Below are positions 7,100 to 26,258 of a DNA stretch of 64,000 nt, in pieces. Both the position numbers and the translations under genes were made by a program. Every line of letters begins with the position of its first letter. Position 1 is the first letter of the stretch. The notes beneath the pieces were generated by a model that was not told where the DNA came from, made no database searches, and saw nothing but the letters and a program-made list of their open reading frames with translations. The stretch is from Chloroflexota bacterium (GTDB lineage Bacteria; Chloroflexota; Limnocylindria; Limnocylindrales; CSP1-4), in assembly GCA_021785175.1 (NCBI GenBank), contig JAJYGH010000077.1:11709-75708 (forward strand), written 5' to 3'.

Positions 7100-8041
7100 A
7101 TGCAGCTCGTCGACCTGCTCTCGGGCATTCAGCCGAAGCCGACGACGTTCATCGACATCGGACTCACGGCGCTCCTGATCTATGGCCTGTTCAGCCTGAT
7201 CCGGGACACCCGCGCGGTCCGGCTCGTCATCGGCGTCGTGCTGCTGTACGGGCTGTACGTCCTCGCACAGCTGCTCGGCCTCCAGCTTCTTTCCCAGCTC
7301 CTGCAGGCCGGCGCGTACGTGGGGCTGTTCGCCCTCGTCGTCGTCTTCCAGCCCGAGCTGCGCCGCGCGCTCGAGCGGCTCGGGCACGTCGGGTCCCTGG
7401 GCTGGATGCTGGCGCCCGGCCAGCAGGGGGGCGCCATCGACCGCGTCGCGGCCGAGGTCGCCCGCGCGGCAGCGGGCTTCGCGAAGGATCGCCACGGGGC
7501 GCTGATCGTGCTCGAACGCGAAACGGGCCTCGAGGACCTGGGCGAGACCGGCGTCATGATGCACGCCGACGTCTCGGCCGAGCTCCTGCGCACCATCTTC
7601 ATGCCGCGCTCGCCGCTGCACGACGGTGCCGCGATCATCCGCGGCGACCGTGTCCTCGCCGCCGGCGCCGTACTGCCTCTCGCCGAGAGCGGCCCCGGCG
7701 ACGAGCGGTTCGGGACGCGGCACCGGGCGGCATTCGGCGTGACGGAGGAGACGGACGCGCTGGTCGTCGTCGTGAGCGAGGAAACCGGGTCCATCGGGCT
7801 GGTCGAACGTGGGCGGATCGTGCGCGACCTCGACGAGGAGCAGCTCCGGGTAGCGCTCGTCACGCTGCTCCGTCTCGACGCGTCGCTCCGCTCCTCGTCG
7901 GGCGAGCGTCACGCGAGCCTGCCGGCGCCGCGCCGCGCGCGCCATCTGCCCCGGCCGAACCTGACGCACCGGCCGCCGCGCGGGGGAGCGCCGGGTGCCG
8001 CCGCGGGCGCGGTATCCGCGGGACGGGTCGACCGCACGTGA
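7100..8041 (+). CDS. cdaA: Diadenylate cyclase CdaA (membrane-anchored DAC domain, c-di-AMP synthase)
   Basis: Three N-terminal TM helices then DAC domain with RHRAAFGVTEETDALVVVVSEETGSIGL motif; followed by cdaR-glmM as in the conserved operon. Confidence 0.88.
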   Translation: MQLVDLLSGIQPKPTTFIDIGLTALLIYGLFSLIRDTRAVRLVIGVVLLYGLYVLAQLLGLQLLSQLLQAGAYVGLFALVVVFQPELRRALERLGHVGSLGWMLAPGQQGGAIDRVAAEVARAAAGFAKDRHGALIVLERETGLEDLGETGVMMHADVSAELLRTIFMPRSPLHDGAAIIRGDRVLAAGAVLPLAESGPGDERFGTRHRAAFGVTEETDALVVVVSEETGSIGLVERGRIVRDLDEEQLRVALVTLLRLDASLRSSSGERHASLPAPRRARHLPRPNLTHRPPRGGAPGAAAGAVSAGRVDRT

Positions 8042-9300: not shown

Positions 9301-10641
9301 ATGGCACGACTGTTCGGTACCGACGGGATCCGGGGGATCGCGAACGTCGACCTCAAGCCCACGCTCGCCTTCGCGCTCGGGCGCGCGACGGCGCACCTGC
9401 TGGCGGCCGGCCGCGGCCCGATCGTGCTCGGCCAGGACACCCGCCGGTCCGGCGACATGCTGGCGGCCGCGATCGTCGCCGGAGCGACGTCGATGGGCGT
9501 GGACGTGCACCGCGCCGGCGTCCTTCCCACCCCCGGACTCGCGCACCTCGCCGGGATGGGCGCGTTCGCCGCCGGCATCGTCGTGTCGGCCTCGCACAAC
9601 CCCGCCGACGACAACGGTCTGAAGGTGCTCGACCGGCACGGGATCAAGCTCGACGACACCGTGGAGGACGAGCTCGACACGCTCATCTGGCGGGCCGACG
9701 AGCTTGCGAGCCCCACGAACGAGGGGATCGGGCGTGACCTCGACGCGCGCAACCTCGTCGAGGAGTACGTCGCGCACCGGGTCGACCTCGCCCGCCGGAG
9801 CCGGAACGACCTCCGCGTCGTGGTCGACTGCGCAAACGGGTCGGGCTATGCGGTCGCCCGGCGGATCATCGCGGAGAGCGGTGCGAGCGTGACGACCATC
9901 CACGATCACCCGGACGGCGTGAACATCAACCGTGACTGCGGAGCGACCCATCCCGAATCGCTGGCCGCGGCCGTGGCCGAGTCGGGTGCCGATGTCGGGT
10001 TCGCGCTCGACGGCGACGCCGACCGCTGCGTCGCGGTCGACGAGAAGGGTCGCGTGGTCGATGGCGACCGGCTCATCGGGCTCATCGCGCTCGACCGGCT
10101 CGGTCGCGCGGCGCTCGCCGAGTGCACGGTCGTCGTGAGCGTCCTCTCGAACGGTGGCCTGGCGGCCGTGGTGCAGGGCGCCGGCGGCCGGATCGTCCGC
10201 ACCCCCGTCGGCGACAAGTACATCCTCGACGCCATGCTGGTCTCCGGGGCCGGGCTCGGCGGCGAGAAGAGCGGGCACGTGATCGTGGCGGAGCACGCGA
10301 ACGCCGGCGACGGGATCGTCACCGCACTCGAGGTGCTGGGCATCCTCGCGCGGCGCGGACGCCCGCTCTCGGAGCTCGTCGATCCGATCCCGCTGTATCC
10401 CCAGCAGCAGCGCAGCGTCCGCGTGCGCCACAAGGACCAGTGGGATGCCGACCCGATGCTCACCGCCGCCGTGCGGGCGGCGGAGGCCGAGCTGATGCCG
10501 GGTGGCCGCGTGCTGGTCCGGCCGTCGGGCACTGAGCCGGTCCTGCGGATCATGGTCGAGGGCGAGGACGAGTCGAGCGTCGCCTCGCTCGCCGACGGGC
10601 TCGCCGCGCTCGCGACCGAGCGTCTCAACCAGTCGGCGTAG
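9301..10641 (+). CDS. glmM: Phosphoglucosamine mutase
   Basis: MARLFGTDGIRG...VVSASHNPADDNGLKV (active-site Ser motif SASHNP). Confidence 0.95.
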   Translation: MARLFGTDGIRGIANVDLKPTLAFALGRATAHLLAAGRGPIVLGQDTRRSGDMLAAAIVAGATSMGVDVHRAGVLPTPGLAHLAGMGAFAAGIVVSASHNPADDNGLKVLDRHGIKLDDTVEDELDTLIWRADELASPTNEGIGRDLDARNLVEEYVAHRVDLARRSRNDLRVVVDCANGSGYAVARRIIAESGASVTTIHDHPDGVNINRDCGATHPESLAAAVAESGADVGFALDGDADRCVAVDEKGRVVDGDRLIGLIALDRLGRAALAECTVVVSVLSNGGLAAVVQGAGGRIVRTPVGDKYILDAMLVSGAGLGGEKSGHVIVAEHANAGDGIVTALEVLGILARRGRPLSELVDPIPLYPQQQRSVRVRHKDQWDADPMLTAAVRAAEAELMPGGRVLVRPSGTEPVLRIMVEGEDESSVASLADGLAALATERLNQSA

Positions 10642-12489: not shown

Positions 12490-13125
12490 ATGGAACGCGG
12501 GGCGGAGGACGGGCGCGACGTGACGCGCGCGGAGTCGGCGGTGGCCGGCGGCCGGAACGGGATCCGGCCGACACCGGGCGAGGCCGGAGCCGCTGCGAGT
12601 GGCGAGGCGCCGATCCCGGAGCTCGGAGTCGACATCGTCCGCGTCGAGCGGATTCGTGCCGCCCTGGAGCGGTACGGCGAACGGTTCCGGCGTCGCGTCC
12701 TGACGCCCGCGGAGGCGGCCTACGTTCGCTCGAACCCCGAACGCTTCGCCGGGCGGTGGGCGGCAAAGGAGGCCGTGAGCAAGGTGCTCGGGCTCGGGGT
12801 TCGGGGCGTCGGGTGGCGCGACATCGAGGTCGTGCGGCTGCCGACGGGGCAGCCCGCTGTCCGGCTGTCGGGTCGCGCCGGCGCCCGCGCGCTCCAGCTC
12901 GGCATGGGGCGCATCGCGCTCTCGATCACGCACGAACGCGAGTACGCCGTGGCCGTCGCGTCGGGTGTGCGGGCGGCGGGGGGCGCGTTCCTGTTCCCGG
13001 TCGACATCGAGGACCGGCTCGACGAGCGTGAGCGGCGTCTCGTCGCGCGCCTGGAACGGATCCGGGCGCTCGGCCGCGATGTCGTGGACGCCGAAACGAG
13101 CCGCGCCGCGAAGCCCGAGCGATGA
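12490..13125 (+). CDS. acpS: Holo-[acyl-carrier-protein] synthase with N- and C-terminal extensions
   Basis: Core LGVDIVRVERI...FAGRWAAKEAVSKVLG matches AcpS; start uncertain (ATG 12490 or GTG 12541). Confidence 0.75.
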   Translation: MERGAEDGRDVTRAESAVAGGRNGIRPTPGEAGAAASGEAPIPELGVDIVRVERIRAALERYGERFRRRVLTPAEAAYVRSNPERFAGRWAAKEAVSKVLGLGVRGVGWRDIEVVRLPTGQPAVRLSGRAGARALQLGMGRIALSITHEREYAVAVASGVRAAGGAFLFPVDIEDRLDERERRLVARLERIRALGRDVVDAETSRAAKPER

Positions 13126-14162
13126 GCGCATCATCCCGGCGGCCCATCCAGGTCCTCGATGACGATGCGGTCGCCGCGCTGCTCCCGGTCCGCGACCCGA
13201 GGGCGCACAAGGGCGACAACGGTCGGATCCTCCTGGTCGCGGGTTCGCTCGATTTCGCTGGGGCCGGGCTTCTCTCGAGCCACGCGGCGGGGCGTGCCGG
13301 CGCGGGCCTCGTGACGCTCGCGGTCCCGCGGTCGCTGCAGCCGGTCGTGGCGGGCCGTTTCGTCGAGGTCATCACCCACGGGCTTCCGGAGCGGGAACCG
13401 TACGAGGTCGACCCGGAGGCGGCGGCGGCCGAGGTGCGCGGCCTCGCCCACGACGCGCTCGTGCTCGGCCCGGGCCTGCGCCGTTCCGACGCGAACGATG
13501 CCTTCGTGAACGCCGTGCTGACCGGCGATGGAGGCCAGGCGGGCGACGTCACGCCGTCGAGTGGCGCCGCCGCGTCGCGCGGTGGCACGGCGACCGCCGA
13601 CGACCCCGCGCCCGTGCTCGTGGATGCCGAGGCGCTCAACGCGCTGTCGCGGACGCCCGGGTGGCACGAGCGGGTGCGGCGGCGCTGCGTGTTGACCCCG
13701 CACCCCGGCGAGTTCCGGCGCCTGCGGCCGGACGTCGAGGGCGACCTGTCCGGCGACGATGACGCGCGCGAGCGGGCGGCACGCGACGCGGCCGAGGAGT
13801 GGGGGCAGGTCGTGCTGCTCAAGGGCGCGCGGACCGTCATCGCGAGCCCCGACGGACAGGCGGCACGCCTGCCGTTCGAGAACCCCGCCCTCGGCACTGG
13901 CGGGACGGGCGATGTCCTGTCGGGCGTCATCGGTGCGCTCCTCGCGCAGCGACTCGAGCCGTACGCCGCGGCGCGCCTCGGCGCGTACCTTCACGGCGCC
14001 GCCGGCGAGGTCGTCCGCGAACGGCTCGGTGACAGCGGGCTGCTTGCGTCGGACCTTCCCGGCGAGATCGCGCACGCCCGACACCGGCTCTCGAAGCTCC
14101 GCGACCGCCGGTCCGGTTCGGAACACAGGGTCGGCTTCGCGATGCGGGGCGGTGGGGCGTGA
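13122..14162 (+). CDS. nnr: ADP-dependent NAD(P)H-hydrate dehydratase (YjeF C-terminal domain only)
   Basis: HKGDNGRILLVAGSLDFAGAGLLSSHAAGRAGAGLV...GTGGTGDVLSGVIGALLAQ motifs of YjeF_C carbohydrate-kinase-like domain; ATG overlaps acpS stop. Confidence 0.8.
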   Translation: MSASSRRPIQVLDDDAVAALLPVRDPRAHKGDNGRILLVAGSLDFAGAGLLSSHAAGRAGAGLVTLAVPRSLQPVVAGRFVEVITHGLPEREPYEVDPEAAAAEVRGLAHDALVLGPGLRRSDANDAFVNAVLTGDGGQAGDVTPSSGAAASRGGTATADDPAPVLVDAEALNALSRTPGWHERVRRRCVLTPHPGEFRRLRPDVEGDLSGDDDARERAARDAAEEWGQVVLLKGARTVIASPDGQAARLPFENPALGTGGTGDVLSGVIGALLAQRLEPYAAARLGAYLHGAAGEVVRERLGDSGLLASDLPGEIAHARHRLSKLRDRRSGSEHRVGFAMRGGGA

Positions 14163-15421
14163 GCGCGGCCGGCGAAGGCGGAGGACCTCTGCCGCTCGAG
14201 GCCCGGCTGCAGGCGGCCGGACTGCCGCCGCTGCCGCGTTCCGCCTGGCTCGAGATCGACCTCGCGGCCCTCGCCGCGAACGTCGCGACGGTCCGCTCCC
14301 TGCTGCGGCCAGGCGTGCGCCTGGCCGCGGTCGTCAAGGCCGACGCGTACGGCCACGGGCTCGTCCCGGTTGCGCGCGCGTTCGCCGCCGCCGGCGTGGA
14401 CTGCCTGTGCGTCGCGACGCTGGACGAGGCGCTCGCGGTCGCCGACGCCGCGCCCGGCGTGACCGTGCTCGCGCTGTTCCAGCCGCCCGTCGACGGGATG
14501 TGCGAGGCCGCCGCGCGCGGGATCGAGGTGACGCTCTCCGGGGAAGGGACGGTGCCGGAGATCGGCCGGCTGGGGCTCAGGGCGGATCGGCCGCTCCGCG
14601 TGCACGTCGAGATCGACACGGGCCTGCAGCGTGCCGGGGTCGCGCCCGGGCGTGCCGGCCGCGTGGCGTCCGCCCTGCTCGCGACGCCGGGCGTCGAGCT
14701 CGTCGGGGCGTGGTCGCACCTCGCGAGCGCACACGACGCGGCCGTCAGCGCCGAGCAGGCGTCGCGGTTCCGTGAGGCGTGCCGCTCGGTGGAGGCGTCC
14801 GGGGCGCGCGTGCTGCGGCATGTCTGCGCGACGGGCGGCATCTTCGCGGCGACGGCTCCCCAGCTCGACATGGTCCGCGTCGGGCTCGCCCTCTACGGCC
14901 TGCTGCCGGACGCGTTCCCCGCGGCGCCCGCGGCGCGACCGGCAGCGGCGCGCCTGCGTCCCGCGATGTCCCTGCGCGCCCGGCCTCTTCGGGTCGCGAA
15001 CGTGCAGCCGGGGGAGGGCGTCGGGTACGGCGCGCGGTGGCGTGCGGACCGGCCTTCGTCGGTCGCGACCCTGCCGGTCGGGTACGGCGACGGTTGGGCC
15101 TACGCGTCGGCGGGGCGGACGAGCGCGCTCGTCCGCGGGCGGCGCGTGCCGCTCGTCGGGAGCGTGGCGATGGACGCCGTCGCCGCCGACGTCACGGACG
15201 TGCCGGGGGTCGGCCTGGGCGACGAGTTCGTGCTGCTCGGGGAGCAGCAGGGCGAGCGCATCGCCGCCGTGGATCTGGCGCGTGAACGCGCCACGATCCC
15301 GTACGAGATCGTGACGGCGATGGCACGGCGTCTGCCCCGCGTGTACGATGCCGACGGCGACGTGCTGAGCGTCCGGACGCTCTCGGGCGAGTCGCGGGCG
15401 ACGCGGGCGAGAGGGCAATGA
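14159..15421 (+). CDS. alr: Alanine racemase
   Basis: AVVKADAYGHG PLP-lysine motif; two-domain length 420 aa; GTG overlaps nnr stop. Confidence 0.9.
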   Translation: MSAAGEGGGPLPLEARLQAAGLPPLPRSAWLEIDLAALAANVATVRSLLRPGVRLAAVVKADAYGHGLVPVARAFAAAGVDCLCVATLDEALAVADAAPGVTVLALFQPPVDGMCEAAARGIEVTLSGEGTVPEIGRLGLRADRPLRVHVEIDTGLQRAGVAPGRAGRVASALLATPGVELVGAWSHLASAHDAAVSAEQASRFREACRSVEASGARVLRHVCATGGIFAATAPQLDMVRVGLALYGLLPDAFPAAPAARPAAARLRPAMSLRARPLRVANVQPGEGVGYGARWRADRPSSVATLPVGYGDGWAYASAGRTSALVRGRRVPLVGSVAMDAVAADVTDVPGVGLGDEFVLLGEQQGERIAAVDLARERATIPYEIVTAMARRLPRVYDADGDVLSVRTLSGESRATRARGQ

Positions 15422-16107
15422 CTGGCGTGAGGCTGTGGAACGGCGACATCTGCGACCTCCAGGTCGACGCGATCGTCGTGCCGGCGATGCCAACCCTGTT
15501 CATGTCGTACGGCGTCGCGGCGGCCGTGAAGCAGCGCGGAGGGCACGGCATCGAGTTCGAGGCGGTGTCGCGCGGACGCCAGGACATCGGCGCGGCGGTC
15601 GCGACCGCGGCAGGCTCGCTCGGCGCGCGCCACGTCATCCACGCGGTCTCCGTCGGTCCCGATCGGAAGACGTCCGCGGCCGCGATCGACGCCGCGACCC
15701 GGTCCGCGCTCCGGCTCGCGGAATCGCTGGGCGCAGGTGTCGTCGCGTTCGCGCCGCTCGGCTCGCCGCTCGGCGGCGTCCCACTCGCCGAATCCGCGCG
15801 GACGATGCTCCGCGCGATCCACGAGACGCTGGCCTCCGCCTCGGTGCGCGACGTCGTGATCGCGCTGCGCTCGACCCCCACCTACGAGGCGTTCCGGGAC
15901 GAGCTCGGCCGCCAGCGTGTGCTCCGGGCCGTGCCGGTGACGCCCGGCTCCGACCTCATGCCGGTCCCGGTCGCGCCGGAGGCGGACCAGCCGACCGGGC
16001 CGGACCCGGACGAGGCCGGCGCCGACGATCGAGCCTGCGCGTCGTCGGACGTCGAGGCACCCGCAGCCGACGCGACCCCGCTCCACACCGCGGGCGCCGG
16101 GCGATGA
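15418..16107 (+). CDS. Macro domain protein (ADP-ribose/O-acetyl-ADP-ribose binding or hydrolase)
   Basis: LWNGDICDLQVDAIVVPAMPTLFMSYGVAAAVKQRGGHGIEF...ARHVIHAVSVGP resembles the macro-domain N-terminal Gly-rich ADP-ribose-binding motif region; ATG overlaps alr stop. Confidence 0.65.
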   Translation: MTGVRLWNGDICDLQVDAIVVPAMPTLFMSYGVAAAVKQRGGHGIEFEAVSRGRQDIGAAVATAAGSLGARHVIHAVSVGPDRKTSAAAIDAATRSALRLAESLGAGVVAFAPLGSPLGGVPLAESARTMLRAIHETLASASVRDVVIALRSTPTYEAFRDELGRQRVLRAVPVTPGSDLMPVPVAPEADQPTGPDPDEAGADDRACASSDVEAPAADATPLHTAGAGR

Positions 16108-16397
16108 GCGAGCCCCGCTTCCTGAGGCGCGACGAGGTCCAGGACGAGCTCGTGGACGCCGTTGCCCGCGAGGTCCAGATGCGCGGGATGACCACGAGCA
16201 TGGTGCTGTTTCTCGAGGCGAGCCGGCCGTACCGGCCCCTCGGGAGCCCCGCGATGCTCTTCTTCGACCCCGTCCTCCGCAGCATCCTGACCGGCGGAAT
16301 CGCCGGCGTGGAGCGCGTCCTGGCCGACGAGAGCGGCATCGAGCGACTCATCGAACGACTCGAGGAGCTCGACGAGGAGTCCCGCTGGGATTCGTGA
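16104..16397 (+). CDS. Hypothetical 97-aa acidic protein
   Basis: ATG overlaps macro gene stop (ATGA); high GC3; no recognisable motif (MSEPRFLRRDEVQDELVDAVAREVQMRGMTTSMVLFLEAS...). Confidence 0.45.
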   Translation: MSEPRFLRRDEVQDELVDAVAREVQMRGMTTSMVLFLEASRPYRPLGSPAMLFFDPVLRSILTGGIAGVERVLADESGIERLIERLEELDEESRWDS

Positions 16398-16480
16398 CCG
16401 CGGGGCGGGCACGCGGGGTCGAGCGCGAAACGGCCCTGTCCCGTCCGACGCGGCGCGGGCAGGCCGGGTAGGATCATCGG

Positions 16481-18073
16481 GTGACCTCCGGCGCCCACCC
16501 ATCGTTCACCATCGACGTCGGATCGGCCTCGATCGCGGCCGCCCTGATCGCCCCGCTCGACGGCCGTCGGCGCCTGCTCGCGTCGGCCGCGGCCCCGGTG
16601 GCCGTCGGCGCCGAGCCGCTGCTGCGCGACCTCGTGGGGCGAGTGTCGGCCGCCGACCGTGCGGTCCTGCCCGACGCGGGCCGCTGGGAGGACTGGCCGC
16701 GGATCGAGTGCCGCACGGACCCGCCGCCGCGCGCGGTGCTGGCCGGGATCTCCGAGCGTGTTCTCGAGCCCCTCGCCCGCGAGTTCACGCGCGATGGCTG
16801 GGCTGTGACGGCGACCGTCACGGGCGAGCGAGCCCAGGCATACGAGACCGCGCTCGCGATCCGCGATCCCGACCTCGACCTGCTCGTCGTCGCGGTGCCG
16901 GACGGCAGCGCGCACGACAGCGCCGCCGCGCTCCTTGCCGTCGTGGGCGCGGTCGCCTCGCTCCGACCGCAACTGCCGGTCGTGGTCTCGGGCGGCGGTG
17001 CGACGAGCGTGCCGGGCGTCGCGCCGGAGCGGCTCCTCCACGGTCACGGCCCGGCCGACACCGTCGCCGTGTCCCGGCAGGCCGTCCCCGGCCGGCTCGC
17101 GGGTCGCGAGGCCTTCGTGCGGTCGGTCGCGTCGCTCGCCCAGGTCCTCGACCTGCGCGTCGAGGGCGTGGACGTCGGCCACGAGGCCGGGACGCGGGCC
17201 ATGGCCGGAGCCGACGGCATCCTGCGCCGGATCGTCCTCGCCGAGGGTGCGCTCGTGCCGGCCGCGGCGCTCGACGACCAGCGCCTGCTCGATGCGATCG
17301 CGCGCTGGTCACCCCTGCCCGACGACGCGTACGTGATCCGGGATCGGCTCCGGAACCTGCGCATCGCGCCGTGGCGCGACGCCACGTCGGACGGGGCGAG
17401 GCTGCGGCTTGCGGCGGCGCGCGCCGCTCTCGAACGGCTGGAGGACGCCTGGCATGACGACGGGCGGCAGCATGGCAGCGGCCTGGACCGGTTGACCGAC
17501 CGCCACGGCCACGTTCCCGCGACCGCGCCCGACCTCCTCATCGCGAGCGGTGGCGCCTTTGCCGCGCCGCCCGGCCCTGCGACCGCGCTCGCACTCGTCG
17601 ACACGCTGCGCCGCCCGGGTGCCATGGTCCTCGCGCACGACCACGCGCGGGTGCTCGGCCCGATCGGAACCCTTCAGGACGAGGACGAGCGAAGGCGGCT
17701 GCTCGCGGAACTCGTCGACACGGCGCTGCTGCCGCTCGGCAGCGCGATCGTCGCACCGGGGCTGCGGGCCGCTCGACGCGGCACGGTCAGGGTGACCGTG
17801 GGCGGCGCGACGACGAGTCTGCCGCTGACCCCGGCCGCGGTGCAGGTCGTCGATCTGCCGCCGGGCGTGTCCGCCACCACCGAGCTCGACTCACCGGACG
17901 ACCTGTTCGTCGGCGCACGGGCGCGTCGCGTCTCGTTCGAGGTCACGGGCGGGCTGGGCGGCCTGCTCGTCGACACCCGCGAGATCCCGCTGCGGCTGCC
18001 GGATCGCCCCGAGCGACGGCGTGCGTATCTCGATGCGTGGCAGCGACCGCTCTGGACGAACGCGGAGCCATGA
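16481..18073 (+). CDS. Hypothetical protein, GlmL/MutL-like putative actin-fold (ASKHA) ATPase
   Basis: N-terminal FTIDVGSASIAAALI resembles phosphate-1 motif (DxGS) of glutamate-mutase-associated GlmL/MutL family; internal VVVSGGGATS phosphate-2-like motif; 530 aa. Confidence 0.5.
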   Translation: MTSGAHPSFTIDVGSASIAAALIAPLDGRRRLLASAAAPVAVGAEPLLRDLVGRVSAADRAVLPDAGRWEDWPRIECRTDPPPRAVLAGISERVLEPLAREFTRDGWAVTATVTGERAQAYETALAIRDPDLDLLVVAVPDGSAHDSAAALLAVVGAVASLRPQLPVVVSGGGATSVPGVAPERLLHGHGPADTVAVSRQAVPGRLAGREAFVRSVASLAQVLDLRVEGVDVGHEAGTRAMAGADGILRRIVLAEGALVPAAALDDQRLLDAIARWSPLPDDAYVIRDRLRNLRIAPWRDATSDGARLRLAAARAALERLEDAWHDDGRQHGSGLDRLTDRHGHVPATAPDLLIASGGAFAAPPGPATALALVDTLRRPGAMVLAHDHARVLGPIGTLQDEDERRRLLAELVDTALLPLGSAIVAPGLRAARRGTVRVTVGGATTSLPLTPAAVQVVDLPPGVSATTELDSPDDLFVGARARRVSFEVTGGLGGLLVDTREIPLRLPDRPERRRAYLDAWQRPLWTNAEP

Positions 18074-19101
18074 TCGGTTCGATCGCGCCCGACCGCATCG
18101 CGCCGCGGGTCATGATGCTGTCGCAGCCCGTCGTGCGGATCGCACTCCATCCGGGTGATCGGCCGCTCGTCGCGGCCGGCGACAGGGTCGAGCCGGGCCA
18201 GCCGGTCCTCGAGCGCCTTCGCCACGCGCAGGTCGCCGAGCACGGGCTCCGGGGCCATGCGATGCCGGCGCCGGGGACGACGTTCGCAGGGGGCACGGCC
18301 GTGGCCGGGTCCGGACGCCGCACACTCCGGTTCGATGGCGCGGGCGAGGTCGTCTGCGCCCTGCCCGGCGGCCACGTGCGGGCGGTCGTCTCACGCCACC
18401 TCGCGACCGTGGAGTCGCCGGTCGACGGCACCGTGGTCGGCCTCGACGCCGCCGCGCTGTCGCTTCGGGCCGACGGGATGGGCGTCACCGCCCTGATCGC
18501 GGTCGGCGAGCCCGCGTGCGGTCCGCTTGTCGTCGCCATCGAGGGGCCGTCGGCGGAGCTCCGGGGACAGCGGATCGACGTCCGGCACGCGGGCGCCATC
18601 CTCGTCGCCGGGTCCCGCATCGACGTCGAGAGCCTGACCCGCGCCCGGGCGATGGGCGTGCGCGGCGTGATCGTCGGGGGCGTCATCGGCACCGACGTGC
18701 ATGCGCTCCGCGCGTCGATCGGACGCCAGGAGGCATCGATCCACGCGAGCCCACCCTTCGCGCTGGTCGTCCTCGACGGGTACGGGAAGCGGCCGATCCC
18801 GCCCGACGCCTGGGAGGCGCTGACGCAGGCGGCGGGGCAGACCGTCGGTCTCGCCACGACGCCGCCGCTCGTGCTGCTGCCTTCGGACGCGGCGCCGTAC
18901 GCCGCGGACCGGTCCCGTGTGCGGGTCGTGTCCGGCCCGTACCTCGGCCGCACAGGCCGTGTCCTCGAGATGATCGGCCTCCGCCGGCTCGCCGGCGGCG
19001 TGTACCGGGAATTGGCCCGCGTCGCGCTCGACCCTGTCGTGCCGCCCGGCGCCCACGACATCGTCGAGCTGCCGATCGCCGAGCTGGAGCGTCATGGCTG
19101 A
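18070..19101 (+). CDS. Hypothetical protein with C-terminal KOW-like motif
   Basis: ATG overlaps upstream stop (ATGA); RVRVVSGPYLGRTGRVLEM fits the KOW G-x-Y/F-x-G-x-x-G-x-V pattern; otherwise no match recognised. Confidence 0.45.
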   Translation: MIGSIAPDRIAPRVMMLSQPVVRIALHPGDRPLVAAGDRVEPGQPVLERLRHAQVAEHGLRGHAMPAPGTTFAGGTAVAGSGRRTLRFDGAGEVVCALPGGHVRAVVSRHLATVESPVDGTVVGLDAAALSLRADGMGVTALIAVGEPACGPLVVAIEGPSAELRGQRIDVRHAGAILVAGSRIDVESLTRARAMGVRGVIVGGVIGTDVHALRASIGRQEASIHASPPFALVVLDGYGKRPIPPDAWEALTQAAGQTVGLATTPPLVLLPSDAAPYAADRSRVRVVSGPYLGRTGRVLEMIGLRRLAGGVYRELARVALDPVVPPGAHDIVELPIAELERHG

Positions 19102-19627
19102 GCCGCGGACGCCGGGGGGATCGTCGGTGGTGGTCCGGAGCGCGTCGGCCGAGGCGACGCGAGCGCTCGCCGCGCAGGTCGCCGAGGTGGCCGGGGCGGG
19201 AGACGTCGTCGCGCTGCGCGGCGAGCTGGGCGCCGGGAAGACGCAGTTCGCCAAGGGGTTTGCGCGGGGTCTGGGCGTCGATGCCGTCGTCAACAGCCCG
19301 AGTTTCACGCTGATGGCCGAGTACGCAGGCCGCTTGCCCCTGTTCCACCTCGACCTGTACCGCATCGTGGGGGCCGCGGACGCGCTGGCCGGAGGGCTCC
19401 TCGACGAGCGGCAGCAATCGGGCGTGACGCTCATCGAGTGGGCCGAGCGCCTGGACGGTCCGGTCGGGGGATCGGACGTCGAGGTGCGGTTCGAGGGCTC
19501 CGGCGACGAAGTGCGCCGGATCGAGCTTCTGGCGCGGACCGACCGCGGCCGGCACTACGTCGGTGCGGCGCGGACGTGGCGGGACGAGTGGCGTGACGCT
19601 GCGAACAGCGACGGGGGGAGGCCGTGA
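19094..19627 (+). CDS. tsaE: tRNA threonylcarbamoyladenosine biosynthesis ATPase TsaE
   Basis: Walker A LRGELGAGKTQFAKG; precedes tsaB-rimI-tsaD. Confidence 0.9.
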   Translation: MAEPRTPGGSSVVVRSASAEATRALAAQVAEVAGAGDVVALRGELGAGKTQFAKGFARGLGVDAVVNSPSFTLMAEYAGRLPLFHLDLYRIVGAADALAGGLLDERQQSGVTLIEWAERLDGPVGGSDVEVRFEGSGDEVRRIELLARTDRGRHYVGAARTWRDEWRDAANSDGGRP

Positions 19628-20421
19628 TGGACGGTGGTGCGGGCGACCGTGCGAAGGGCCCCCTCGTCGGGATCGACACGGCGACGCGCCGGGCCGCGAT
19701 CGCGATCGGCGACGGGTACGGGCCGCCGGTCTCACAACGGTCGTGGGAGGCGGGCTACCGGCACGGCGAGGAGCTGCTGGCGGTGCTCGACGAACTCCTG
19801 CGCGAGGCGGGGATCGGGCTGTCGGACGTCGGCGGGATCGTGACCGGGATCGGACCGGGCGCGTTCACGGGGCTGCGGGTCGGGCTTGCGACGGCGAAGG
19901 CCCTCGCCTACGGGCTCCACGTGCCGATCGTGGGCGTTGCCTCGACGCGCGCACTCGCCCGCGCCGCACTGGCATCCCCGAATCCACGGCCGCCAGCCGG
20001 GGCCGGGCCGCCGGGCGCAGGCCCCGCATCTGCCCACCCTGCGGTCGTCGCGGTCGCGATGCCCGCCGGGCCCCATGACCGATATCTCGCGCGATATCGC
20101 ACTCTCGCGGGGCAAGGCGATCTCGAAGCTGTCGACGGTCCTGTGCTCGTCCCGGGCGGCGAGGCGATCGAGCCGCTCGTCCGCGATGCGACACTGGTCG
20201 CCGTCGACCTGGGCGGGCGCCCTGGCGTGGACGACGATGCGCTCGTGCGGGGTCGCATGGCGCAGGAGGGGCTCGGGGAAGCGCTGCTGGCGGCGGGCCG
20301 CGAGGCGCTCGATCGCGGCGAGGCGGGTGACGTCGCGGCCCTCGTGCCGGCGTACGTGACGCTGCCGCGGGGCATCACGGTGCAGACGGGAGCCATCGAG
20401 TGGTCGCGCGACCTCCGGTGA
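19624..20421 (+). CDS. tsaB: tRNA threonylcarbamoyladenosine biosynthesis protein TsaB (inactive Kae1 homologue)
   Basis: LVGIDTATRRAAIAI...GPGAFTGLRVGLATAKALAY typical YeaZ. Confidence 0.88.
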   Translation: MMDGGAGDRAKGPLVGIDTATRRAAIAIGDGYGPPVSQRSWEAGYRHGEELLAVLDELLREAGIGLSDVGGIVTGIGPGAFTGLRVGLATAKALAYGLHVPIVGVASTRALARAALASPNPRPPAGAGPPGAGPASAHPAVVAVAMPAGPHDRYLARYRTLAGQGDLEAVDGPVLVPGGEAIEPLVRDATLVAVDLGGRPGVDDDALVRGRMAQEGLGEALLAAGREALDRGEAGDVAALVPAYVTLPRGITVQTGAIEWSRDLR

Positions 20422-21011
20422 CCGTCGTCATCGAGCCGATGCGCGCGGACGACATCCCCGCCGTCCACGACATCGAGCGCGCGAGCTTCAGCGCGCCCTG
20501 GCCGACCTACGCGTTCCGGCAGGAACTCGAGTCGAATCGCCTCGCCCGGTACGTCGTCGCGCGGGAGGGGGACCACGTGGTGGGCTACGGCGGGCTCTGG
20601 CTGATGGTCGACGAGGCCCACATCACGACGTTCGCCGTGGCGCCCGCATCGCGGCGGCAGGGTGTCGGGGAACGCATGCTGCTCGAGCTGTTGCGGATCT
20701 CGGAGTCGGTGGGCGCGGCGGTCGCCACGCTCGAGGTGCGCGTGTCGAACCTGCCGGCGCGGCGGCTGTACGAGAAGTACGGCTTCCGGCCGGTCGGCGT
20801 GCGGCCCCGGTACTACACGGACAACAACGAGGACGCGCTGATCATGACGACGGGGGAGCTCAGCTCGAGGGAGATGCGCGGGCGCATCGCGCGGCTGTCG
20901 GCCGAGCTGTTCGGGTCGGGGGTCGGCGCGACGGACACCGCCGCTGATCGGCGCGGCGGCGCCGATCAGCGGAGCCCCGGTGTCCCGCGCGGCGGGGAGG
21001 CGGTCGGATGA
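20418..21011 (+). CDS. rimI: Ribosomal-protein-alanine N-acetyltransferase (GNAT)
   Basis: GNAT motifs (RRQGVGERMLLELL; YEKYGF); GTG 20418 overlaps tsaB stop (alternative ATG 20400). Confidence 0.85.
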   Translation: MTVVIEPMRADDIPAVHDIERASFSAPWPTYAFRQELESNRLARYVVAREGDHVVGYGGLWLMVDEAHITTFAVAPASRRQGVGERMLLELLRISESVGAAVATLEVRVSNLPARRLYEKYGFRPVGVRPRYYTDNNEDALIMTTGELSSREMRGRIARLSAELFGSGVGATDTAADRRGGADQRSPGVPRGGEAVG

Positions 21012-22051
21012 GTGGCAGCGGGATCGTCCTCGCCGTCGAGACGTCGTGTGACGAGACGGCCGTCGCCGTCGTCGAGAACGGGCGGCGGATCCGCGCCAGC
21101 GTGGTCGCGAGCCAGGTCGCCATGCACGCCGCGACGGGCGGGATCGTCCCCGAGGTCGCGGCACGCGCGCACCTCCGCTGGATCGTGCCGGTGTTCGAGG
21201 AGGCGCGCGCGGGGGCCGGGATCGACGACTGGTCGGAGATCGAGTCGGTGGCCGTGACATACGGACCGGGGCTCGCAGGCTCACTGCTCGTCGGCATCAA
21301 CTTCGCGAAGACGCTCGCCTACGTCCACGGTCGCCCGCTCGTCCCGGTCAACCACCTCGAGGGGCACATCTACGCCGCGTGGCTGCTCGACCCCGGCGAG
21401 TCCGAGCGGCCCGCGCCGCCGTTTCCGCTGATCGCGCTGGTCGTCAGCGGCGGGCACACGTTCCTCGTCGAGATGCGCGACCACCTCGACTATCGCTTCC
21501 TCGGGCAGACGGTCGACGATGCGGCGGGCGAGGCGTTCGACAAGGTCGGCCGGCTGCTGGGCCTGCCGTATCCCGGCGGCCCGGCGATCATGAAGGCGGC
21601 CGCCGGGGCGGTCGACCACGACGTGGAGTTCCCGCGGGCCTGGATGGGCGACTCCTACGACTTCAGCTTCAGTGGCCTCAAGACGGCGGCGCGCCGGGCG
21701 ATCGAGGCGCGCGGGGGGACCGCGTCGCTCGCGTCGGAGGTCGTGGCCGAGCTCGCGTACGGGTTCCAGGAGTCGGTCGTCGACGTGCTCGCGACGAAGA
21801 CGGGGCTGGCCGCCGCGCGCAGCGGGGCACAGGCGATCGTGCTCGGCGGCGGCGTCGCGGCGAACGCGGTGCTGCGGGATCGCGTCGCCGAGCGAGCGGC
21901 GGCGCTCCACATCCCGCTGATCGTGCCGCGGCCGGCGCTCTGCACGGACAACGCGGCGATGATCGGGGCGGCCGGCTTCTTCCGGACGCGCGCCGGGACG
22001 CGCGCTTCGCTCGACCTCGACGCGCGCCCGTCGCTGCCACTCGTCGAGTGA
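21008..22051 (+). CDS. tsaD: tRNA N6-adenosine threonylcarbamoyltransferase TsaD
   Basis: ILAVETSCDETAVAVV...HLEGHIYAA metal-binding His motif; ATG overlaps rimI stop. Confidence 0.93.
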   Translation: MSGSGIVLAVETSCDETAVAVVENGRRIRASVVASQVAMHAATGGIVPEVAARAHLRWIVPVFEEARAGAGIDDWSEIESVAVTYGPGLAGSLLVGINFAKTLAYVHGRPLVPVNHLEGHIYAAWLLDPGESERPAPPFPLIALVVSGGHTFLVEMRDHLDYRFLGQTVDDAAGEAFDKVGRLLGLPYPGGPAIMKAAAGAVDHDVEFPRAWMGDSYDFSFSGLKTAARRAIEARGGTASLASEVVAELAYGFQESVVDVLATKTGLAAARSGAQAIVLGGGVAANAVLRDRVAERAAALHIPLIVPRPALCTDNAAMIGAAGFFRTRAGTRASLDLDARPSLPLVE

Positions 22052-22068
22052 CCGGAGTCGCTCGGACC

Positions 22069-23070
22069 ATGACCACACCGCGCGATCCTCTCGACGGCGT
22101 CCACCTCGGTCCCGAGTCCGTCCGCCGGCACCTGCGCCGGCACGGCCTCGAGGCGCGGCACTCGCTGAGCCAGAACCATCTCGCCGACGGTGAGACGCTC
22201 GAGGCGATCGTGCAGGCCGCCGCGCCGACGGGACGCCGAGTGCTGGAGATCGGGCCGGGCATCGGCATCCTGACCGGCGCCCTCCTCGCGCAGGGAGCGG
22301 CCGTCACCGCCGTCGAGGTCGACGCGCGCCTGGCCGCGCACCTCCGCGACCGGTTCGCGGAAGCGATCGGCCGCGCGGAAGACGAGGAGGCCCCCGGCGG
22401 CCTGCGGTTGGTCGAGGCCGACGCGCTCGACGTTCCCGTCACGGACCTCGTCGGGGCCCCGTACGACCTCGTCGCGAACCTGCCCTACCACATCACGAGC
22501 CCGATCCTCCACCACGTCCTCGGCAACGAGCCCCGTCCGGAGCGGTTCGTGCTGATGCTCCAGCGCGAGGTTGCCGAGCGGATCGCGGCGGCGCCGGGCG
22601 GGCTCAGCTACCTCAGCGTGTTCGTCCAGTACCACGCCCGCGTCGAGGTCGTGCGGATCGTGCCGGCCTCGTCGTTCGAGCCGTCGCCCGACGTCGACTC
22701 GGCCGTGCTGGTGGGCACCACGAGGCCACGGCGGTTGCCGCCGGACGAGGAGGATGCGCTGTGGCGCCTCGTCCAGGCCGGGTTCCGGGAACGTCGCAAG
22801 ATGCTCCGCAACGTGCTGTCGCGGCAGCTGACGTCGCTCGGACGGGAGCGCATCGACGCGGCGCTCGAGGGCACCGGGATCGCGCCCGATCGGCGGCCGC
22901 AGACGGTGTCCGTCGAGGAGTGGCTGGCGCTCGCGGAGGCGCTGGCCATGATCGGCGACGATTGGCGGAAGGGCGCGGCGAACGGCGCGCAGACCGACCC
23001 CGCGGACACCGACGCCGGGCACGCGCGCACGGGACATGCCGGCACGCCGGCCCCGGGCGGCCACCGGTGA
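22069..23070 (+). CDS. rsmA: 16S rRNA (adenine1518/1519-N6)-dimethyltransferase
   Basis: HSLSQNHL...VLEIGPGIGILT SAM-binding motif, NLPYHITS catalytic motif; Ala-rich C-terminal extension. Confidence 0.9.
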   Translation: MTTPRDPLDGVHLGPESVRRHLRRHGLEARHSLSQNHLADGETLEAIVQAAAPTGRRVLEIGPGIGILTGALLAQGAAVTAVEVDARLAAHLRDRFAEAIGRAEDEEAPGGLRLVEADALDVPVTDLVGAPYDLVANLPYHITSPILHHVLGNEPRPERFVLMLQREVAERIAAAPGGLSYLSVFVQYHARVEVVRIVPASSFEPSPDVDSAVLVGTTRPRRLPPDEEDALWRLVQAGFRERRKMLRNVLSRQLTSLGRERIDAALEGTGIAPDRRPQTVSVEEWLALAEALAMIGDDWRKGAANGAQTDPADTDAGHARTGHAGTPAPGGHR

Positions 23071-24758: not shown

Positions 24759-26258
24759 GTGAACGACGCCACTGCCGGCCCGCTCGCCGTCATCCTCGCC
24801 GCGGGCCTCGGGACCCGCATGCGGTCGCGCCGGCCCAAGGTCCTTCACCCCGTCTGCGGCCGCCCGATGCTGGCCCACGTGCTCGACGTCGCTCGCACGC
24901 TCCGTGGGCCCGACCCGCTCGTGGTCGTGTCGCCCGCGACCGAGCGCGTGCGGCAGGAGATCGGGGCCGATGGGGTCGCGTACGCGCTGCAGGCGGAGCC
25001 GCTCGGGACGGCCGACGCGCTGCGGTCCGCGATGGACGCGGTCCCCCCCGGGGTCGACGAGATCATCGTGCTCAGCGGCGATGTCCCGCTGCTGCGGCCC
25101 GCCACGGTCCGCGAGCTGGTGCTGCTGCGGCGCTCCGAGGACGCGACGATCGCCCTCGCCGTGACCCATCCGGCCGACCCGCGCGGGTACGGCCGCGTCG
25201 TGCGCGACCTCGACGGGCGCGTGGCACGGATCATCGAGGAGAAGGACGCCGACGAGGCGACGCGCCGGATCGGCGAGGCGAACGCCGGCCTCTACGCCTT
25301 CAACGCGGCGTGGGTGCGCTCGCGGATCGCGGACGTCGCGCCGTCGCCGACCACGGGGGAGTATTACCTCCCGGAGCTGGTCGCGATGGCGCATGCCGAG
25401 GGCGGCACGGTCGTGACGCTCGACGTCGCGGACGAGCGCGAGCTGGCGGGCATCAACGACCGGGTGCAGCTCGCCGAGGCGGAGGGGGAGCTGCGCCGGC
25501 GCATCGTCGAGGAGCACATGCGGGCCGGGGTCACGATGCTCGACCCGCGCAGCGTCACCGTCGAGTCGGGCGTCGAGATCGCCCCCGATGTCGTGCTCGA
25601 GGCCGGCGTGATCCTGCAGGGCCGCACCCGGATCGGAGCCGACAGCGTGATCGGCGCCGGCAGCCGGGTCGTCGACAGCGTCGTCGGCGAGCGGTGCCGT
25701 GTCTGGTCGAGCGTGATCGAGTCGAGCGAGATCGGGGACGACGTCCGGATCGGGCCCTGGGCGCACCTCCGCCCGGGAACGCGCGTCGGCGACGGCGCCG
25801 AGGTCGGCAACTTCGCCGAGATCAAGGCGAGCACCCTCGGTCCCGGCTCGAAGCAGCACCACTTCAGCTATCTCGGCGACGCGACGATCGGCACGCACGT
25901 GAACATCGGCGCGGGCACGGTCACCTGCAACTACGACGGACGCCGCAAGCACCCGACCCGGATCGGCGACGGTGCGTTCATCGGATCCGACACGATGCTC
26001 GTCGCTCCCGTGGACGTCGGCGCCGGGGCGAGGACGGGGGCCGGCTCGGTCGTGACCCGCGACGTTCCGGACGGGATGCTGGCCGTGGGCGTGCCCGCGC
26101 GCCTCCGCCGGCCGCGAGATGCAAGCGAGCGGGAGATCGAGCCCGGGACGATCGCCGCGGAGGCCGGAGAGGCCTCCGCGGTCATGGCCGGCGCAGCAGA
26201 CGATCCCGCGGCCCAGCGGCCGGTACCCGCAGCGGAGGACGCCGCGCCCCGCGCATGA
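24759..26258 (+). CDS. glmU: Bifunctional UDP-N-acetylglucosamine pyrophosphorylase / glucosamine-1-phosphate N-acetyltransferase
   Basis: LAVILAAGLGTRMRS nucleotidyltransferase motif plus C-terminal left-handed beta-helix hexapeptide repeats; GTG start. Confidence 0.92.
   Translation: MNDATAGPLAVILAAGLGTRMRSRRPKVLHPVCGRPMLAHVLDVARTLRGPDPLVVVSPATERVRQEIGADGVAYALQAEPLGTADALRSAMDAVPPGVDEIIVLSGDVPLLRPATVRELVLLRRSEDATIALAVTHPADPRGYGRVVRDLDGRVARIIEEKDADEATRRIGEANAGLYAFNAAWVRSRIADVAPSPTTGEYYLPELVAMAHAEGGTVVTLDVADERELAGINDRVQLAEAEGELRRRIVEEHMRAGVTMLDPRSVTVESGVEIAPDVVLEAGVILQGRTRIGADSVIGAGSRVVDSVVGERCRVWSSVIESSEIGDDVRIGPWAHLRPGTRVGDGAEVGNFAEIKASTLGPGSKQHHFSYLGDATIGTHVNIGAGTVTCNYDGRRKHPTRIGDGAFIGSDTMLVAPVDVGAGARTGAGSVVTRDVPDGMLAVGVPARLRRPRDASEREIEPGTIAAEAGEASAVMAGAADDPAAQRPVPAAEDAAPRA

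Follow-up and report, generated by a model that had tools for sequence, protein, structure and literature searches.

Between the genes for alanine racemase (alr) and TsaE, the window analyzed here, a 64,000-nt stretch of contig JAJYGH010000077.1 (assembly GCA_021785175.1), probably carries, in reduced form, a gene system that is conserved across several classes of the Chloroflexota and apparently undescribed. The genes concerned encode a 97-amino acid protein (p97), a 530-amino acid protein of the actin-fold (ASKHA) type (p530), and a 343-amino acid protein of three domains (p343), and they are preceded by a gene for a macro-domain protein. We propose that the p97-p530-p343 trio is likely to be the ATP-driven cytoplasmic module of a membrane complex of the cell envelope. 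An earlier, sequence-only reading had framed the locus by reference to actinobacteria, whereas the organism belongs to the Chloroflexota, class Limnocylindria. The cassette and its immediate flanks are laid out as follows.

14159..15421, + strand: alr, alanine racemase, the upstream flank (Pfam Ala_racemase_N and Ala_racemase_C; NCBIfam TIGR00492, 263 bits)
15418..16107, + strand: macro-domain protein, 229 amino acids, accessory cassette member (PF01661, 60 bits)
16104..16397, + strand: p97, 97 amino acids, soluble, a new family, homologous to the first gene of full systems
16398..16480, + strand: non-coding spacer of 83 nt between p97 and p530, which holds the motif CCGGGTAGGAT
16481..18073, + strand: p530, 530 amino acids, GTG start, a divergent GlmL/MutL-family ASKHA (actin-fold) protein
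18070..19101, + strand: p343, 343 amino acids, three domains, the obligate partner of p530
19094..19627, + strand: tsaE, the downstream flank (Pfam TsaE, 111.7 bits; TIGR00150), followed by tsaB, rimI, and tsaD

We surveyed one genome per species, which gave 356 species with a p530 relative, and fetched 80 loci of about 15 kb each. Homologues of p530 and p343 were found almost only in metagenome-assembled genomes named Candidatus Limnocylindrales, Limnocylindria, or Chloroflexota. The genes p97, p530, and p343 occur in that order in 70 of the 70 loci with enough flanking sequence, a recurrence that shows an arrangement far beyond chance. The trio lies between alr and tsaE in 66 of these 70 loci, which bears out the sequence-only expectation that the genes recur together at this junction in related genomes. 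Four loci have no alr flank; in L016, L025, and L044, alr is missing from its usual place and nnrD is followed directly by the macro gene or by p97.

Four overlaps described in the sequence-only reading can be read in the sequence. The stop codon of alr overlaps the start of the macro gene, that of the macro gene the start of p97, and that of p530 the start of p343, each as an ATGA (at 15418, 16104, and 18070), and the end of p343 overlaps the start of tsaE by 8 nt (19094-19101). For p343, the ATG at 18070 fits the lengths of the homologues better than a GTG upstream at 18037; the overlap of p530 with p343 is frequent among related loci. The further claim that every junction overlaps does not hold, however, because p97 and p530 are separated by the 83-nt spacer (16398-16480). 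Each of the 73 related loci that were measured has a spacer here, of 16-269 nt with a median of 58 nt; three loci with broken gene calls (557-760 nt) were excluded. Nor is coupling among the four genes obligatory: the spacer always intervenes, and the macro gene is missing from 23 of 74 related loci and from all Anaerolineae versions. The conserved core is thus p97-p530-p343, or p530-p343 alone in some lineages.

Within the spacer, the sole stretch conserved among the aligned close relatives is CCGGGTAGGAT (16464-16474), at a distance of 6 nt from the GTG start codon of p530, with a one-nucleotide variant in L011. The stretch may serve as a ribosome-binding site (AGGA) or as an internal promoter, in which a -10-like TAGGAT (16469-16474) would be spaced as for a leaderless transcript. 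Rfam gave no match across 13000-23000 at E ≤ 1, spacer included. Promoter and terminator consensus scans of the cassette found none, and such scans are of little value at 75% guanine-plus-cytosine (GC) content.

Full-system relatives have four membrane-protein genes at the position of this spacer. In L087 (GCA_046262115.1), a deeper member of the Limnocylindria, the region from alr to tsaE encodes an 85-amino acid p97 homologue, a DUF6754 protein, a six-helix protein, a two-helix protein, another six-helix protein, a 562-amino acid MutL, and a p343 homologue. The two-helix membrane protein carries an alpha/beta domain. A metagenome scan seeded with the p343 homologue of L087 returned 80 soil loci. 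In every soil locus with enough upstream DNA, the full set, with the four membrane-protein genes in that order, lies between alr and tsaE, most often with a macro gene before the p97 homologue.

A related operon in the Anaerolineales, that of the MutL protein P0383, begins with genes for an 84-amino acid protein, a DUF6754 protein with two membrane helices, a six-helix protein of 203 amino acids, and a 1045-amino acid protein, and ends with those for a second six-helix protein (205 amino acids), MutL (577 amino acids), a 356-amino acid protein, and a membrane or LPXTG-type protein. Operons of this type turn up again on contigs assigned to Anaerolineaceae and to Ardenticatenaceae or Anaerolineales (36-67% GC), where they stand elsewhere in the genome, adjoining neither alr nor tsa genes. 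The 1045-amino acid protein (L081:4243-7380) combines a zinc ribbon at its N terminus with a long, acidic, repeat-bearing region and a helix-domain-helix module. Hydropathy scans predicted transmembrane segments in the four partner proteins, in which no recognizable enzyme domain was found; for DUF6754 and the domain of the two-helix protein, PDB sequence and profile searches gave noise only.

The soluble proteins of the window are homologous to those of both full forms. The first protein of the L087 set (b85) is 41% identical to p97 (E 3e-18), its MutL is 29% identical to p530 over 582 columns (E 1e-22), and its p343 homologue (b342) matches p343 at E 1e-15. Profile-profile comparison with hhalign links p97 to the Anaerolineales 84-amino acid protein (a84; probability 96.5%, E 8e-10) and p343 to the 356-amino acid protein (a356; 98.2%, E 3e-14). 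Because the order p97, membrane genes, MutL, p343 is common to Anaerolineae and deep Limnocylindria-like lineages, the full form is taken to be ancestral. The four genes of the window, which the sequence-only reading had presented as a four-gene cassette, thus appear, on gene order and homology, to be what remains of a Chloroflexota system of seven to eight genes after four membrane genes were lost exactly at the spacer. In two deep-branching contigs (L091:3346-6098 and L092:3629-6357), a MutL-like and a p343-like gene alone occupy the space from alr to tsaE; p97, macro, and membrane genes are all absent there, and this pair is therefore the minimal unit.

The protein p530 gave no direct match in Pfam or NCBIfam (E ≤ 0.1), in PADLOC, or among PDB sequences. 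Its AlphaFold2 model, built on 31 homologues, has a mean predicted local distance difference test (pLDDT) score of 87.8, and a Foldseek search with it returned ASKHA proteins only. The best matches were of the HyuA type (acetophenone carboxylase 5l9w, E 1.9e-7; N-methylhydantoinase 9h03, E 5.4e-7; acetone carboxylase 5svc), followed by PilM, DnaK, Ppx/GppA, FtsA, and HgdC-type activators. The ASKHA fold comes with conserved nucleotide-binding motifs: invariant residues are D12-x-G14 in phosphate-1, G233 and G237 in phosphate-2 (VDVG233xxxG237), and G357-G358 in the adenosine motif. A flavodoxin-like domain is inserted at about residues 74-190, the second ASKHA lobe spans about residues 227-425, and a C-terminal beta domain with a helix holds the invariant GGLGGLLVDTR (residues 490-500).

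An exhaustive profile search with p530 gave 902 clusters, including matches to P0383 (E 1.4e-26) and P0330 (E 8e-37). More distant full-length relatives pass the Pfam MutL model PF13941, among them P0383 (Anaerolineales; 176.6 bits over the whole model), which NCBI names glutamate mutase L, and P0330 (Limnocylindria; 86.5 bits). These Pfam-positive relatives nevertheless sit far below the NCBIfam GlmL cut-offs (81 versus 475 bits and 52 versus 204 bits). Thus, p530 is a divergent member of the MutL/GlmL superfamily, linked to it by fold and transitive homology, and not a GlmL equivalog. Of the earlier call of a GlmL/MutL-like ATPase, the ASKHA fold and the homology to PF13941 members stand; a direct match to a hidden Markov model (HMM) does not. 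In two long-read assemblies, p530 is broken into pieces (L012:7476-8603 and L065:7578-8588), which could be assembly frameshifts or real pseudogenes. Long matches to the p530 profile carried no extra, Rosetta-stone-type domains except for P0363, a 724-amino acid metagenome protein that holds the C-terminal part of p530, p343, and TsaE in a single open reading frame (ORF); because p343 and tsaE overlap by 8 nt, a frameshift introduced in assembly seems a likelier source of this ORF than a genuine fusion.

The gene for p343 always stands directly downstream of that for p530. The protein consists of an N-terminal barrel-sandwich hybrid domain (about residues 16-160), a swivelling beta/beta/alpha domain (about residues 165-270) with the motif GSRIDxEALTRARAMGVRGVIVGG, and a C-terminal KOW/SH3-like barrel (about residues 280-343). 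The last of these is a five-stranded barrel similar in fold to the KOW domains of NusG, Spt5, or ribosomal proteins, which upholds the earlier naming of a KOW-motif protein as far as the fold goes; the score against PF00467 falls short of the Pfam cut-off (19.7 versus 22.3 bits, residues 283-300). Beyond this sub-threshold hit, Pfam, NCBIfam, and PADLOC gave nothing, and PDB sequence and profile searches gave noise only. The swivelling domain resembles those of phosphoenolpyruvate (PEP)-utilizing enzymes, aconitase X, and RraA, and has invariant Arg, Asp, Glu, and Gln residues. A phospho-His swivel mechanism was considered and rejected, since the phosphate-carrying His that follows the GG loop in PEP-utilizing swivel domains is not conserved.

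Of the four cassette proteins, p97 is the best conserved: in the closest genome it is 96% identical, versus 85% for p530. Across 77 loci its identity has a median of 62%, close to that of tsaE, which argues for purifying selection. The consensus of a 75-sequence alignment reads VAREIQLRGL..FLEASRPYRPLG..AMLFFDPVLR..GIERLIERLEEL and ends in an acidic tail, EELDEExxWD[AS]. Sequence and profile searches found no match to p97 in Pfam, NCBIfam, or PDB, and a hydropathy scan predicted no membrane helix. Neither p97 nor the domain combination of p343 matches a described family. The ...DEExxWD[AS] tail (window 16360-16394) is a feature of the reduced lineage, the p97 homologues of full systems being without it. 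The acidic region of the Anaerolineales 1045-amino acid protein, about 700 amino acids long, carries at least eight [LIM]P[DE]WL repeats, and these and the p97 tail may share a short linear motif.

In the mechanism that we favor, p530 would bind and hydrolyze ATP in a complex with p343 and p97, and the trio would be the present or former cytoplasmic energy or regulatory module of a membrane complex. That p530 keeps the nucleotide-binding motifs of its fold and that p343 is its constant downstream partner were shown above, as was the position of p97 at the head of the set in most lineages. The membrane complex most likely acts on the cell envelope, judged from its genomic company. Neighbors of the Anaerolineae operons include a PIG-L deacetylase, a GlmM-type PGM_PMM protein (phosphoglucosamine mutase), a LysM protein, and a protein with an LPQTG sorting signal (L082:1639-2364, L082:10884-12200, L084:7355-8242, and L081:10890-11546), and in the window the cassette shares its surroundings with cdaA, cdaR, glmM, glmS, alr, and glmU. 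In the lineage of the window, what would remain of the machine is p97, a spacer with a putative conserved initiation signal of its own, p530, and p343; this remainder may dock to membrane partners encoded elsewhere or may have gained an autonomous role.

Several observations weigh against this proposal. The gene neighborhood points only weakly to an envelope role, being the sole source of that link and lying inside an ancient housekeeping supercluster, and physical interaction of p97, p530, and p343 is read from gene order only. The p530 of the window itself matches no GlmL, MutL, or other HMM, and it has lost the GGT[DE]xG stretch that Pfam-positive relatives retain in the inserted domain, so its activity may have changed. 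Searches with tblastn and profile HMMs found no homologue of the membrane partners in either the 64-kb window or the 80 genome loci of about 15 kb, and the trio may therefore no longer be membrane-linked.

Among the alternatives, the one that survives best, although we consider it unlikely, is that p530 and p343 are the two subunits of an ATP-dependent small-molecule enzyme resembling hydantoinase or the beta subunit of acetone carboxylase, with a product that feeds amino-sugar, D-alanine, or nicotinamide adenine dinucleotide-repair metabolism. The neighboring genes are metabolic, and the swivelling domain of p343, with its four kinds of invariant residue, would not be out of place in such an enzyme. 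The best full-length fold matches of p530 are the HyuA-type subunits of acetophenone and acetone carboxylases and N-methylhydantoinase, in which the ASKHA part is likewise followed by further C-terminal domains. These matches reach TM-scores of only 0.27-0.29 at 10-13% identity, however, and have no counterpart at the sequence level. Moreover, no HyuB-like catalytic partner is present, p343 does not conserve the phospho-carrier His, and the ancestral partners are four membrane proteins without a recognizable enzyme domain.

A second alternative takes its cue from the macro protein, whose identification in the sequence-only reading is confirmed by a PF01661 match (60 bits against a cut-off of 22, E 2.8e-16, model positions 6-118 of 118) and by an end-to-end alignment with its closest solved structure, Thermus thermophilus TTHA0132 (2dx6, E 3.2e-21). 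A MacroD-like core (about residues 1-165) is followed by a low-complexity tail rich in Pro, Ala, and Asp. This tail of about 60 amino acids (window 15925-16104) varies in length and sequence among close relatives and is absent from more distant orthologues. TTHA0132 is MacroD-like and has Ala at the position of the proposed catalytic Asp, as does the active Af1521 (PMC5413906). The window protein differs from macrodomains of this type in its tail, in its coupling to p97, and in the loss of the conserved Asn of the (V)NAAN motif, reading IVVPAMPT where TTHA0132 reads IVNAANNY. Its clade has VVPA[MT]; distant orthologues have VNAAN or VNPAN. In MacroD-type macrodomains, the Asn of NAAN contacts the distal ribose and contributes to catalysis (PMC5413906).

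The macro gene is present in 51 of the 74 related loci, and wherever it occurs its stop overlaps the p97 start. It is likewise found with the complete seven-gene system in a deep clade from soil (L099, L101, L110, L116, and others), which speaks for an old association. Both facts favor the idea that the four genes are one module for reversal or repair of ADP-ribosylation, in which the macro protein would remove ADP-ribose while the ATPase and adaptors remodel the substrate. That idea is improbable, as is the ADP-ribose-centered function first suggested for the whole set: the macro gene is absent from the other 23 reduced-cassette species, from L087, L147, and the pair-only loci L091 and L092, and from every Anaerolineae operon; the catalytically relevant Asn has been lost in the clade of the window, where VNAAN has become VVPAM (PMC5413906); and the cluster encodes no ADP-ribosyltransferase. 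These data show the macro protein to be a facultative add-on, translationally coupled to p97.

The family membership of p530 suggests a third alternative, namely that it is a true GlmL-type reactivating chaperone of a coenzyme B12-dependent mutase, with p343 and p97 as helpers. We regard this as highly improbable. Neither the cluster nor the surroundings of any related operon read contains a B12-dependent mutase, and the partners are membrane proteins rather than mutase subunits. A DxHxxG-type motif marks B12 binding, and none occurs in the insert of p530. The shortfall of the Pfam-positive relatives against the GlmL cut-offs points the same way.

The window genes flanking the cassette bear on a fourth alternative. 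The cassette sits in a co-directional housekeeping supercluster (window 1936-26258) in the order rpsD, rpoA, rplM, rpsI, cdaA, cdaR (ybbR), glmM, glmS, acpS, nnrD, alr, cassette, tsaE, tsaB, rimI, tsaD, and, further on, glmU and recO, and annotated relatives have it in identical order. Four of its members lie at these positions.

7100-8041: cdaA
8038-9297: cdaR/ybbR
9301-10641: glmM
24759-26258: glmU

The cdaA-cdaR-glmM-glmS block matches an arrangement in Firmicutes. GC content is 0.73-0.77 in cassette and flanks alike, and base composition thus gives no sign of a recently acquired island. The many long ORFs read in other frames or from the opposite strand are what a GC content of 75% normally produces, and a filter on third-codon-position GC (GC3) retains the + strand set only.

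In this fourth alternative, the p530/p343 pair is an accessory to N6-threonylcarbamoyladenosine (t6A) tRNA modification, acting with TsaE, TsaB, and TsaD. The 8-nt overlap with tsaE favors it, as does the place of the pair directly upstream of tsaE in all Limnocylindria-like lineages, very divergent ones included; in addition, TsaB and TsaD share the ASKHA fold, and p343 could bind RNA through its KOW-like barrel. Outside the lineage of the window, however, the tie to t6A proposed in the sequence-only reading finds no support: the Anaerolineae operons lie beside no tsa gene, and the other partners in the system are membrane proteins. Unrelated genes occupy the alr-tsaE junction in other phyla, which also counts against a t6A role, and we give that role very little credence. 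The junction has carried lineage-specific cargo over long evolutionary time, and adjacency alone should therefore not be annotated as a link to t6A or D-alanine. Finally, it is barely credible that loss of the membrane genes has left the reduced trio to decay without a function: p530 and p343 do evolve faster (median identities of 45% and 40%, versus 72% for tsaD and glmS) and p530 is without a motif kept by its relatives, but the ORFs are intact in 70 of 70 species spanning 35-85% identity, many residues are invariant, p97 is very well conserved, and the predicted folds are of high confidence.

The preferred account, a reduced membrane-linked system with an ATP-driven cytoplasmic module, can be carried further. 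An undescribed machine of several Chloroflexota classes, built from a GlmL-type ATPase, a barrel-sandwich/swivel/KOW subunit, a small adaptor, and four membrane proteins, might serve envelope biogenesis or maintenance, and the main Limnocylindria lineage might have streamlined it to a soluble trio with a separable function, modulated by the macro protein in many species. We offer this extension tentatively, with the balance of likelihood against it. If it were true, the GlmL/MutL family would not consist primarily of B12-enzyme reactivases, and a function of its own for the seven-gene machine would strengthen the claim of novelty. The reduced and full forms amount to a natural experiment in which the membrane genes have been deleted or kept, and they can guide co-expression and interaction tests in Chloroflexota, a group abundant in soils and waters and poorly cultured.

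Several known systems resemble this one in part. None of the four cassette proteins matched a PADLOC anti-phage model at E ≤ 1. FtsA and PilM, which have an actin fold and are tethered to the membrane, bind short peptides of their membrane partners; p530 shows no sequence similarity to them, no demonstrated 1C-type subdomain, and no sign of polymerization or membrane tethering. The N-terminal domains of NqrA and RnfC, peripheral subunits of membrane ion-pumping redox complexes, are alike in fold and layout only (a barrel-sandwich subunit with two six-helix proteins), and cofactor motifs are lacking. p343 did not match the sequence profiles of the RnfC_N/NqrA barrel-sandwich domain (PF13375 and PF05896), and a relationship to Rnf/Nqr was rejected on hhalign probabilities of 3.5% for p343 against Escherichia coli RsxC and below 0.1% for the six-helix protein against RsxA or RsxE. 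The diol/glycerol dehydratase reactivase DdrAB contains ASKHA, swivelling, and flavodoxin-like domains, and so offers the same fold types in an ATP-dependent helper; its domains are distributed over other polypeptides, it gave no sequence or top fold match, and no B12 enzyme lies near the cassette.

The closest relative remains GlmL/MutL (PF13941; NF040745, TIGR01319), for which a role as a chaperone reactivating glutamate mutase has been described (PMC4682846) and which is classed with the non-polymerizing families of the actin superfamily (PMC5597319). With it p530 shares the ASKHA fold, a Rossmann or flavodoxin-like domain inserted in that fold, homology through intermediates that pass the Pfam model, and, presumably, the role of an ATP-dependent helper. 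It differs in its lack of a direct HMM match, in an extra C-terminal beta domain with GGxxGxxxDxR outside the 450-position Pfam model, and in having p343, p97, and membrane proteins as obligate partners, with no B12 mutase nearby. The literature searched holds no mention of DUF6754, PF20539, or PF13941, and the sequence-only judgment that the combination is not a described system agrees with our finding no description in the libraries and literature searched. Until now, GlmL/MutL proteins have been known solely as assistants of B12-dependent mutases, and they have been little studied. In at least three lineages of the Chloroflexota, a large branch of this family instead goes with a fixed set of other partners (p343, p97, and the four membrane proteins), and the system is apparently an undescribed one, in which a GlmL-type ASKHA helper is encoded with an entirely different, conserved partner set.

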